A stretch of DNA of 64,000 bases, taken from Dictyostelium discoideum (taxonomy: Eukaryota). The notes under the pieces are model-generated. The model saw only the letters and a list, made by a program, of their open reading frames with translations, was not told the DNA's origin and did not search any database. Positions 29,316 to 33,389 of the stretch are shown one piece after another (position 1 is the first letter of the stretch; each line of letters begins with the position of its first letter). The stretch is taken from assembly GCA_000004695.1 (NCBI GenBank), contig CM000152.2:5248001-5312000 (forward strand), given 5' to 3'. Both the position numbers and the translations under genes were made by a program.

Positions 29316-29910
29316 TTTTTTTTTTTTTTTTTTTTTTTAGTACACCAAAAATAAAAATAAAATAAAAAAAAATAAAACAATTTATACCATTTAAAAATAT
29401 TACTATTTTGAAGGACCAAAGTGAGAAATGAAAACTTTGCTCTTGATAGTTATGATTACATTCCAAAGGGGGCTGATTATTAATTAATTTTAAATCTTTT
29501 GGTTATAAAAAAAAAAAAATAAAATTGAGAATTTTTAAAAAAAAAAAATTAAAAAAGAAAATAAAAAAAAATTAAAAAAAAAAATTAAAAAATCTCCAAA
29601 AATATCTTATTACCTAATTATCATCGGGAAAAAAAAAAGTTGATTAGAAACAAAAATTATTTTAAATTTTTATTGGAGCCTGTGGTTTTTGCAAGATATT
29701 TTAAATAACACTTTGAAACCAAAAGTTGTAATTAGTAAAAATAAAAAAAAAAAAAATAGAAGATTATATTTGGGCAAATAAAAAAAAAAATTTTATGGTA
29801 TTAAATTAAATATTTAATTTAGCCATGAGATTTAAATAATTTAAGATTTATTTTTTACACTTTGGGATTTTTTTTTATTTTTTTATTTCCGGAACTCTTT
29901 TAATTAAGGA

Positions 29911-30030
29911 TGTTGTAGGGAATTTTCAATAAAATTTCACTACAGTAGCGTAGTGAATTTTATTATTTAATTTCACTACAGTAGCGTAGTGAAAAAAAAA
30001 AATCACTGACCCTAAATTTTTTTTTTTTTC
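29911..30030 (+). repeat. Left terminal inverted repeat of the transposon, containing an internal 2x direct subrepeat aatttcactacagtagcgtagtgaa.
   Basis: It pairs with 33237-33356 as a reverse complement. Confidence 0.8.
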
Positions 30031-30420
30031 AAAAAACAAATAAAGTTTATTAAATTATTATCTTTTATTTGATTATTAGTTCTATTTAAGTTTTTTTATT
30101 TTTTTTTTTTTATTTTATTTTTTTTTTTTTTTATTTTATTTTTTTTTTTTTTTTTTGCGCCAAAATTTTTTTTTTTTTTCCCCAACAAAACTTTTTTTTT
30201 TTTTTTTTTTTTTTTTATTTTCATTTTCCCAAAATGAAACAAGATAAATTATTTAAAATTTATTGAAGATAATAATTTTGAAAATACTAAACATAAAAAT
30301 TATAAATTTTTACATGATGAGTAAATATTTTTCCTTACCATAACACAATCATTTTTTAAATTCTGACCAATAAAAAACAGAAACAGAAAAGAAAAATTAT
30401 TTAGAATTGAAAAAAAAGTC

Positions 30421-32345
30421 ATGAATTGTGGCGGAGATAGAAATATATCAAAAGAAGTGTGTTTAGAAGTAATTAATGATTATAGAATGGTATCACTCTG
30501 GGAAGAAATGCATAAAGGTCATATAGGAAGAGATGCAACCTATGGGAACTACAAGACTAAATATTATAATATGGGATTGTATTCTTTTGTATCTGATGCA
30601 GTAGATACGTGTGACATTTGCCAACGAAATAGAATAAAAGGTTTGGTATCAATCATTTTTTATATGATGTTTTGTAACTTTTATATTAAAACTCTGTGAA
30701 AGTATGGCACTGCGATAATGGACGTGAATTTAAAAACAAAGTCCAAAAAGAATTCCTAAAACTTTTTCCAGGCTCCAAGTCAGCACATGGAGCTCCTCGT
30801 ACACCAACAACTCAAGGTATGGTAGAAAGATTGAATCGAACTATCAAGGAGAGGATCTCAAAATTAAAACAACAAGAGTATGATATTGTGAACAATATAA
30901 ATTATCGATATGTTTATTAATTAATCATTTATAAATAAATTTTAGTTTTCTTGATGGTACTTCTAGGTCTCTTTCTGAACTATTAAAACAAGCTTTGTAT
31001 GATTACAATAATACAAAAACAAGAACAATTAAAATGACACCATCTCAAGCTGTTGGTATTGTACCTTTGTTTATTAATGTGCAATCAGAACAAGACTCTC
31101 AATCAATTGGTGTTTCAGATGTTTCAAAAGAAGAAATAACAGCTATTATTCTTGAAAATCTCACAAGTTACCAAAATCAATGGAATTCAAAACCACCAAA
31201 GGGATTGAAAGTTGGTGATACTGTACTCTTTCTAGAAATTAAAAAAAATAATGTAAGTAATTAAAACATAAAGATTAATAATATATGAAACAGTAATAAT
31301 TAACAAATTTTATATTTAATTCTAATAGAAAATATTGATTTTGTGTAAAATTCATAAGGTAATACAGGAAGACACTAAACAACTTTATAAACTTGAATTT
31401 TTGGAAGATGGAATCAATAGCCTTCAAAAAAAAGGTTTATACTCTGGTTTTGTAGGAGGTAACAAGTTGGTTCTTTATAAACAATCAACAGTTGATATTT
31501 TTAGAACATCGCCAAACATACAAAAAGATATTGATTCTTTTACTTCTGGTCTTTATTTAAATAATGATGGGAAAGTTATTGAATTTCTGGTTCAGTTTAT
31601 TAAAAATCTTGGTAAGGATTTATCCAATTTCAACTTGCATCAATTGGTAACACAAAATGATCCATTTAGGGTTTTGGAAGATGCTCTTAACAATCCATCA
31701 AATATTCCACCTATCATTAACGATAATCCATTTCAACACAAACTCAATAATGAAATGGAACAAGAAGAAATACTCCCATTTTTAAATAATAATCCAACAG
31801 CGCCAAATTTAATGAATTGTTTGAGAAAGGATATGAATTTAAAAGAAATAGTACCACCAATACCTCAAGTGCAAATAATACCATCATATACTATACCACA
31901 ATCTGGTAGTGGTATAGTAACAACTGTTAAACGTCTCAGAGGCCGTCCTCATAAGATACCAATTGTTAATAAACCTCCTTTAAAATCACATTCTAAACCA
32001 TCCAAATCACCTCTCAAATCAACATCCAAATCACCTCTCAAATCAACATCCATTTCACCTTCCAATTCACCATTTAAATCACCATTTAAATCACCTTCCA
32101 AATCACCATTTAAATTACCTTCCAAATCACCATCCATTTCACCTTCCAATTCACCATTTAAATCACCTTCCAATTCACCATTTAAATCACCATTTAAATC
32201 ACCTTCCAAATCACCATCAATAGGAAAAATCGTTAATGTGATACCTTCAAAAAAAGTTGCAAAAACAAAGTCAACAAGGACACAAAAATTAGAACTTGAT
32301 TTGGTTGCAATTAATAGAAGGGGGTATGGGGAAATTAGAAAATAA
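30421..32345 (+). CDS. Transposon-encoded integrase-like protein (multi-exon): HHCC zinc finger, partial DDE core, C-terminal domain, then AT-hook and SPKK-type repeats
   Basis: Exon a carries the HHCC pattern H..H...C..C (HKGHIGRDATYGNYKTKYYNMGLYSFVSDAVDTCDICQRN). Next come WHCDNGREFKNK (the second Asp of DD35E) and HGAPRTPTTQGMVERLNRTIKE (the Glu motif). The splice ga|GTATGA (~30874)...ttttAG|t (~30945) gives D-FLDGTSRSLSELLKQALYDYNNTKTRTIKMTPSQAV, the integrase C-terminus, followed by KVGDTVLF. AAT|GTAAGT (31256)...taatAG (31326) continues into KILILCKIHKV..., then KRLRGRPHK (AT-hook) and (SPxKS)n repeats. Only ~2 residues separate HHCC from the second-Asp motif, so the first catalytic Asp region seems to be missing. 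Confidence 0.6.
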
Positions 32346-32670
32346 AAACAAGTGGCCAAATCAAAAAAACAAAAAAAACACAAATCAACACAAAAAATTA
32401 AAAAAAAAAAAAAAAATTAAAAATTAAAAAAAAAAAAAATTGAAAAAAATAAAAAAAAATTACATTTGTTAAAAAAAATAAAAAAAAATAAAAAAAAATA
32501 AAACTTAAAAAAAATTGAAAAAACAAAATAAAAAAAAAAAATTGAAAAAACAAAATAAAAAAAAATTTCAAAAAAAAAGAATGATCGAAGAATTAATAGA
32601 TTCGATAAAACTCTTAAGAAATTTAGCCATTGAATATGGCAATGAAGAATAGTTAGATTCAGAGGAAAAT

Positions 32671-32979
32671 TTGACTAAATTCCTCGAAAAAGCAGCCAAA
32701 GTACTATATGTAAATAGTGGTGATGCTTTAATCGTTAAAAATTCAAATATGATGTTAGAAGCATTAGAATTAAAATCAAAACAATTTCACCAACATTGTG
32801 TAAAAACTGTAATAGAAAACGAATTATATTTGGACTTTTTTGTATACAAAGGAAAATGCAAAAACATCAAATGCACCAGAGGTAACAAAGCTAGAAAAAA
32901 TTCAATTGTGTGCAGTGTTTACAGTGATATGGTAAATCAAGCAATTGAACAACTCAGGGAGTTAATAAAAATAAATTAA
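32671..32979 (+). CDS. Small transposon-internal ORF (102 aa, Cys-containing), function unknown
   Basis: ATG-initiated ORF with normal composition between the integrase gene and the right inverted repeat. Confidence 0.3.
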   Translation: MTKFLEKAAKVLYVNSGDALIVKNSNMMLEALELKSKQFHQHCVKTVIENELYLDFFVYKGKCKNIKCTRGNKARKNSIVCSVYSDMVNQAIEQLRELIKIN

Positions 32980-33120
32980 TAAAAATAAATTAAAAAAAAA
33001 AAAATTGAAAAAAAAAAAAAATTAACAATAATAATAAATAAAATAATAATTAAAACAAAAAATAAAATTACAATTTAATAAACAAATAAAAATTGAAAAA
33101 AATTTAAAAAAAAAAAATTG

Positions 33121-33153
<33 letters not shown>

Positions 33154-33236
33154 AACAATAATTATAATAAAAATAAATAAAATAATAATTAAAACAAAAA
33201 ATAAAATTTCAATTTAATAAACTTTATTTGTTTTTT

Positions 33237-33356
33237 GAAAAAAAAAAAAATTTAAGGTCAGTGATTTTTTTTTTTCACTACGCTACTGTAGTGAAATTAA
33301 ATAATAAAATTCACTACGCTACTGTAGTGAAATTTTATGGAAAATTCCCTACAACA
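33237..33356 (-). repeat. Right terminal inverted repeat of the transposon.
   Basis: It is the reverse complement of 29911-30030. Confidence 0.8.
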
Positions 33357-33389
33357 AAGGATATTATCGATTATATCAATAATCATACA

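Follow-up and report, generated by a model that had tools for sequence, protein, structure and literature searches.

The locus examined here raises the question of how a transposon whose own enzyme appears to be defective came to lie between two polyketide synthase (PKS) genes of Dictyostelium discoideum. It is contained in a 64,000-nt stretch of contig CM000152.2 (assembly GCA_000004695.1, positions 5,248,001 to 5,312,000 of the forward strand), referred to below as the window. An earlier note, made from the sequence of the window, had described the element as a Tdd-4-like DNA transposon and, probably, as a non-autonomous derivative mobilised in trans. The first proposal is borne out by length, terminal inverted repeats (TIRs), target-site duplication (TSD) and the ~99% identity shared with full-length copies from D. 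discoideum; the second is supported by an identical deletion junction at loci with different TSDs and by the presence of intact partners. We conclude with high confidence that window positions 29911-33356 hold a non-autonomous internal-deletion derivative of Tdd-4 (Ginger2/Tdd), most likely mobilised in trans. Tdd-4, its integrase-like transposase and the AX4 annotation of these loci are already known; the definition of a subfamily lacking 394 bp and the insertion polymorphism between near-isogenic genomes may be new.

The element spans exactly the 3446 bp proposed earlier and occupies, with its duplicated target, positions 29906-33361. The sequence AAGGA flanks it as an exact direct repeat with no strand assignment (left copy 29906-29910, right copy 33357-33361), and this perfect 5-bp TSD, also recognised in the earlier note, is matched by a single AAGGA at the empty site described below. 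The left TIR begins with TGTTG (29911-30056, plus strand) and the right TIR covers 33211-33356 on the minus strand. Both are 146 bp long and their arms are complementary at 144 of 146 positions (2 mismatches, 98.6%), weaker complementarity (84%) extending out to ~269 nt across low-complexity T/A runs. Inverted repeats had been correctly seen from the start, but their size and identity had been put too low, at about 120 bp and 97%. The ends of the element, TGTTG...CAACA, fit the pattern TGTNR...YNACA, and the 17-nt terminus TGTTGTAGGGAATTTTC occurs in the 64-kb window only at both element ends. A 23-nt motif, TTTCACTACAGTAGCGTAGTGAA, is present in four exact copies in the window as against 0 expected, all of them within the two TIRs: at 29935-29957 and 29971-29993 (plus strand) in the left one, and at 33274-33296 and 33310-33332 in the right one, which lies on the minus strand. 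As read off the sequence, this motif is palindromic, with 8-nt arms TTCACTAC and GTAGTGAA, and its copies are candidate transposase-binding sites.

The history of the insertion could be approached by comparison with a second D. discoideum assembly, GCA_054883475.1, whose orthologous locus (L007) carries all three PKS genes of the window with the flanks of the element abutting each other. A 600-bp empty site was reconstructed by joining 300 bp of left flank, with one AAGGA at its end, to 300 bp of right flank; L007 contains an exact match to it, as the earlier note had predicted. The occupied and the empty site differ by exactly the element plus 5 bp, and outside the insertion the two sequences show 1 mismatch and 1 single-base gap in 28.5 kb: the insertion is the sole substantial difference between two nearly isogenic genomes. 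Because the empty site is perfect and without footprint, the comparison argues for a new insertion in the window lineage rather than for an excision in the other genome, and it indicates that Tdd-4, its catalytically dead subfamily included, has been mobile very recently. Two further and more divergent D. discoideum assemblies, GCA_054859385.1 (L005) and GCA_054859355.1 (L006), are devoid of the 4.7-kb spacer holding the insertion site and are therefore uninformative for this test. No paralogous empty site was found beside the other PKS copies in the window, and the spacers between the PKS copies are unrelated to each other.

The nature of the defect was apparent from alignment with full-length DNA, using as references the full-length copy L001 of GCA_054883475.1 and the more diverged copy L002. 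The window copy lacks 394 bp relative to L001 (L001 positions 3275-3668) and 401 bp relative to L002, with the junction at 30695|30696 and a 2-bp CT microhomology. The missing segment takes in the last 23 nt of an intron with its acceptor, one entire exon, the intron after it and 66 nt at the start of the exon beyond, stopping just before GTGAAAGTATGGCAC (encoding VKVWH). At the protein level, the deletion takes out residues 123-222 of the 715-aa transposase, full-length proteins carrying 100 additional residues between RNRIKG and VKVWHCDNG. Alignment to full-length copies, suggested in the earlier note, consequently identified a deletion and not a different integrase architecture; the loss of the first catalytic Asp that it had noticed was verified, but the missing segment is 100 aa and not about 70 aa. 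A second lesion affects the start of the gene, where 17 bp are missing at ~30243/30244. Putting them back regenerates the N-terminus of the 715-aa protein P0021, which begins with MKQDKINEIINYLKF, whereas the window copy gives MKQDKLFKIY followed by a stop.

The resulting gene structure lies on the plus strand. The exon 1 remnant (30234-30320, MKQDK...) is frameshifted by the 17-bp deletion and is followed by an intron (30321-30380). Because this deletion breaks exon 1, the AX4 gene model begins at a downstream Met (30421), and its first exon (30421-30640, MNCGGD...RNRIK), which encodes the HHCC zinc finger, is contained in exon 2 of the full-length gene (30381-30640). The 394-bp deletion junction is held in a 62-nt model intron (30641-30702), for which the predicted splice joins the native donor GTTTGG to a cryptic AG acceptor 7 nt beyond the junction and keeps the frame. 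The remaining exons (30703-30877, 30946-31252 and 31329-32345) encode the second Asp, the Glu and the C-terminal region and are separated by GT-AG introns at 30878-30945 and 31253-31328. A single splice solution reproduces the 572-aa model P0018 (DDB_G0282083), with identity over 572/572 residues. The first protein match obtained had been DDB_G0292352 on chromosome 6; this assignment was rejected in favor of DDB_G0282083 on chromosome 3, to which both the PKS neighborhood and the exact match over 572 aa point.

In the window-copy protein, the HHCC finger corresponds to the Pfam domain Integrase_H2C2 (PF17921, E 9.3e-8, above the cut-off) and joins directly to WHCDNGREF, which contains the second Asp, and then to QGMVER, which contains the Glu, an arrangement already seen in the earlier note. 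A protein search returned full-length D. discoideum relatives of 693-715 aa with both Integrase_H2C2 and rve. The rve match, below the cut-off in the full-length protein, is absent from the deleted one, in which the remaining core region gives a match to rve_3. Matches to Rous sarcoma virus (RSV) and prototype foamy virus (PFV) integrases were detected by phmmer (E ~1e-5), and the alignment to these enzymes puts the first catalytic Asp region of the full-length protein at IQYDSV (D174). The triad D174-D229-E266, with the last two residues in WHCDNG and GMVER, has integrase-typical spacings of 54 and 36. Another candidate for the first catalytic Asp, LVYDLTS, was dropped in favor of IQYDSV on the basis of the PFV alignment and of the 54/36 spacing; both motifs fall within the deletion. 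The window copy keeps the second Asp and the Glu and has lost the first Asp; a complete DDE core is found in its full-length siblings and not in this protein. Owing to the 394-bp and 17-bp deletions, the window copy cannot encode an active enzyme. It is a defective Tdd-4 member by descent, not an autonomous element. Since its termini are intact, with 146-bp TIRs each carrying two 23-nt motifs, it can still serve as a substrate.

The same deletion is present elsewhere. Two further deleted copies from GCA_054883475.1, L003 and L004, share with the window copy an identical junction 30-mer, TTATATTAAAACTCTGTGAAAGTATGGCAC. The same TIR ends delimit them, their neighboring genes are unrelated, and their TSDs differ (AAGGA in the window, GCTAA for L003 and CAAAT for L004, TCATC also occurring among sibling copies). 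The three deleted copies are 99.85-99.97% identical (1-5 substitutions), their other differences being mostly length changes in homopolymer or low-complexity A/T runs, and relative to L001 they have 16 substitutions in common, together with the 17-bp deletion and an expansion of the SPxK repeat by 24 bp. Among AX4 models, the junction peptide RNRIKVWHCDNG was recovered on chromosomes 2, 3 and 6 (twice), and it also occurs in two models of GCA_054883475.1; in a fifth AX4 model, on chromosome 4, the same region is missing with a slightly different splice (RNRIKVQKEF). Intact partners coexist with these copies, the 715-aa open reading frame (ORF) P0021 being found at four loci of GCA_054883475.1 and the full core in the AX4 models P0025 and P0026. 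These observations fit a single origin of the deleted form, which would then have spread as a unit. Because the window copy cannot encode an active enzyme, mobilisation in trans by a full-length Tdd-4 would be the most economical explanation and is, from these genomic comparisons, the most likely one.

The TIRs also bear on the age of the insertion. Compared with L001, the left TIR shows zero fixed differences and the right TIR one substitution. One of the two TIR mismatches, at 33262, recurs in each of the three deleted copies examined; it was thus inherited and is older than the insertion. TIR identity does not date the insertion of a DNA transposon: the earlier note had called this insertion young, and its youth is upheld by the copy-to-copy identity and by the empty site, but not by the TIR argument on which it had relied.

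We then considered the place of the element among known systems. Ginger2/Tdd transposons have TIRs of roughly 50-300 bp, and their TSDs are 5 bp long in Tdd-4 and Tdd-5 as against 4 bp in other Ginger2 elements. Adding the missing 394 bp to the 3446 bp of the window copy gives 3840 bp, compared with 3,839 bp for the published TDD-4, a member of the cut-and-paste class with 5-bp TSDs and TGTNR termini; the ends of Ginger2/Tdd elements follow TGTNR...YNACA (Bao et al. 2010, PMC2836005). The reference sequence of Tdd-4 lies at AAFI02000006.1:352615-356458. The window copy has in common with Tdd-4 its host, the 5-bp TSD, the TGTTG terminus, the H2C2 finger and the integrase-type core, and full-length copies are ~99% identical to it across the common sequence. 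It differs from them by the absence of 394 bp and 17 bp and by two additional SPxK units, and belongs to a separate multi-copy deleted subfamily. The protein P0005, assigned to Tdd-5 by inference, displays the same H2C2 and DDE plan with 42% identity; it is devoid of the RGRP AT-hook and SPxK array at its C-terminus and, being a distant relative, is not the parent of the window copy. Tdd-4 shares its HHCC finger with the PFV, RSV and HIV integrases, and likewise its D,D(35)E-type core, but unlike those of retroviral and long terminal repeat (LTR) elements, the terminal repeats here are inverted, and the catalytic triad is incomplete in the window copy. An LTR retrotransposon or solo integrase remnant was accordingly rejected: the ends are inverted, and the element encodes neither reverse transcriptase nor RNase H, its ORFs being limited to the integrase-like gene and a second, small frame.

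Ds elements of the Ac system and KP-type P elements combine intact ends with an internal deletion at microhomology, are amplified as units and need an autonomous partner. The window copy resembles them in its intact ends, internal deletion, unit amplification and probable partner dependence, whereas Ds and KP belong to the hAT and P superfamilies and the present element to the integrase-like Ginger2 group. Few cut-and-paste DNA transposons use an enzyme closely related to retroviral integrases; Tdd-4 is among them, and the window copy, an otherwise ordinary transposon copy, would form with full-length Tdd-4 a natural substrate/enzyme pair for integrase-type transposition in trans.

A plausible sequence of events would be as follows. 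The 394-bp deletion would have arisen by interrupted double-strand-gap repair at the CT microhomology; in other cut-and-paste families, gap repair interrupted at short microhomology yields deletions of this kind. The full-length Tdd-4 transposase would recognise the intact TIRs, probably via the paired 23-nt palindromes, and would cut at the TGT...ACA ends, excising or copying the element. Integration with a 5-bp staggered cut would then create the AAGGA duplication.

Several other explanations have to be weighed against this scenario. The empty site of the sister assembly could result from precise excision, the insertion being ancestral. Excision is expected of an element classed as cut-and-paste (PMC2836005) and only two genomes were compared at the locus, but across 600 bp the empty site matches perfectly, holding a single AAGGA and showing no footprint. 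Precise excision is in addition difficult to reconcile with the usual behavior of such elements: DDE excision normally leaves the duplication and a footprint, and sister-chromatid repair in a haploid would restore the element and not the empty site. We thus regard an ancestral insertion as unlikely. A spread of the deletion by segmental duplication, or its multiplication by assembly artefacts, would call on the error-prone assembly of repeats and on the large chromosome 2 duplication carried by AX4. It is very improbable given that the three copies have different 5-bp duplications, unrelated neighbors and bounds falling exactly at the TIR ends, and that the empty and occupied sites are set apart by precisely the element and 5 bp. 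The idea that the short spacing between the HHCC finger and the second Asp is native to a distinct integrase lineage, for which we found nothing beyond the in-frame gene model, is extremely improbable: near-identical full-length copies contain the 394 bp, which comprise one complete exon, one complete intron and portions of the segments adjoining them, the junction lies inside an intron, and the Tdd-5-like and diverged Tdd-4 proteins have the full core.

An alternative of another kind concerns function, the deleted gene making an in-frame protein composed of finger, partial core and tail that would regulate Tdd-4, for example as a KP-like dominant-negative repressor. The cryptic splice restores the frame and was chosen by annotators in several gene models, the HHCC finger and the AT-hook/SPxK tail are kept, and transcription is documented for Tdd-4 ORFs taken together, with a 25-fold rise in rblA mutants (PMC3386910). 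According to a 2017 review, the expression and control of Dictyostelium DNA transposons lack detailed study (PMC5633606). Against such a role, exon 1 is frameshifted, the splice is a prediction that relies on a cryptic acceptor and on the weak donor GTTTGG, and the copies are too alike for a test of purifying selection; we consider it quite unlikely. Equally doubtful to us is its extended form, in which the deleted subfamily would be transposing now in laboratory lines with its cryptically spliced product acting as a KP-like dominant-negative Tdd-4 regulator. If true, no natural regulator of an integrase-like (Ginger2) DNA transposon would have been described before it.

The preferred reading, a deleted Tdd-4 copy mobilised in trans, has its own weak points, which should be counted against it. 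The AX4 copies on other chromosomes are known through their gene models. The family assignment draws on length, TIRs, TSD, host and protein architecture. Mobilisation in trans is inferred from genomic comparisons, and the two genomes compared at the insertion site give recency, not the time elapsed since insertion.

The C-terminal tail of the protein contains an AT-hook-like core, RGRPHK (31938-31955, plus strand), followed by an SPxK/SPxN array made of tandem 12-nt (4-aa) units (31997-32218, plus strand). The earlier note had rightly pointed to these motifs, but they are not special to this copy: the tail is shared with full-length Tdd-4 proteins such as P0021 and is also found in P0003, encoded by a copy ~12% diverged in DNA. 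The array is 24 bp (2 units) longer in the deleted copies than in L001. The number of units differs again in the diverged P0003, the array being an unstable coding minisatellite. Judging from the proteins compared, the tail is a feature of the Tdd-4 group with a variable repeat number, and it could plausibly bind AT-rich DNA.

Downstream of the transposase gene, a second small ORF of about 110-132 aa (32581-32979, plus strand) contains an in-frame TAG (32650-32652) and gave no match in a Pfam scan. In every copy examined, the full-length one included, this TAG follows codon 23. The ORF may use a downstream start, contain a tiny intron or be dead throughout the Tdd-4 family. Gene models treat it inconsistently, with products of 110 or 114 aa or fused products. 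The AX4 annotation lists the defective copies as ordinary hypothetical or integrase-domain proteins, some of them fused to neighboring ORFs. Among DDB_G0292352/DDB_G0287117 (P0001, P0019), one model has the defective transposase spliced to the first 23 codons of the second ORF, and in the other a deleted Tdd-4 copy is fused to ~480 aa encoded by a host gene downstream.

Three large genes on the minus strand surround the element and form a tandem PKS triplet. They were identified as pks19 (DDB_G0282027, 10029-18453), a middle copy with its start codon at 29315, equal to a 2762-aa model of the second assembly over 2326 aligned residues, and pks21 (DDB_G0282029, 37536-44786), equal over 2417 aligned residues. 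As the earlier note had reported, the element lies between two PKS copies, namely the middle copy and pks21, at ~590 bp upstream of the middle PKS start codon and ~4.2 kb downstream of the pks21 stop. The PKS paralogues are 95.8-96.1% identical and their similarity ends within ~10 bp of the coding regions (20790-29323), which leaves the element ~590 bp outside the duplicated unit. Divergence among the deleted Tdd-4 copies is lower than among the PKS paralogues by a factor of at least 25. Because the insertion lies outside the unit, belongs to a less diverged set of sequences and is absent from a sister genome in which the genes are already triplicated, it is later than the PKS triplication. 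The earlier note had left open whether the transposon contributed to the PKS duplication or followed it; we conclude that it came afterwards and played no part in causing it. Strain-specific effects on the middle PKS gene are conceivable, given an insertion ~590 bp upstream.

The PKS genes themselves vary. Compared with pks19, the middle copy has ~97 extra bp (28597-28693), and an interruption of its long ORF lies between 27456 and 28596, in contrast to the single short intron gap of pks19; the middle copy may be a pseudogene or contain an extra intron. L005 has only two adjacent PKS copies, with ~0.9-kb spacers and unrelated flanking genes, and L006 has two called PKS copies plus PKS sequence at the contig start. 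PKS copy number at the locus is polymorphic within the species.

No tRNA genes were found in the window. A 74-aa ORF on the minus strand (34506-34730) gave a weak match to DDE_3, a Tc1/mariner-type domain (E 4.5e-6, narrowly short of the Pfam cut-off). Situated 1.1 kb from the Tdd-4 copy, within the PKS spacer that also holds the latter, it is probably a piece of a different DNA transposon.

Finally, the full-length copy L001 carries three insertions of one 758-760-bp element resembling a miniature inverted-repeat transposable element (MITE), at 2107-2867, 4298-5056 and 6107-6867, with termini CACAGCAAAGAA...TTCTTCGCTGTG. The first insertion shows a TA duplication and the second was accompanied by the loss of 30 bp of Tdd-4. 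This MITE-like element may be thug-S; a published AX4 gene has homology to both Tdd-4 and thug-S. It also contains the codons for MGIKYSIIFKF, the opening of the Tdd-5-like model P0005.

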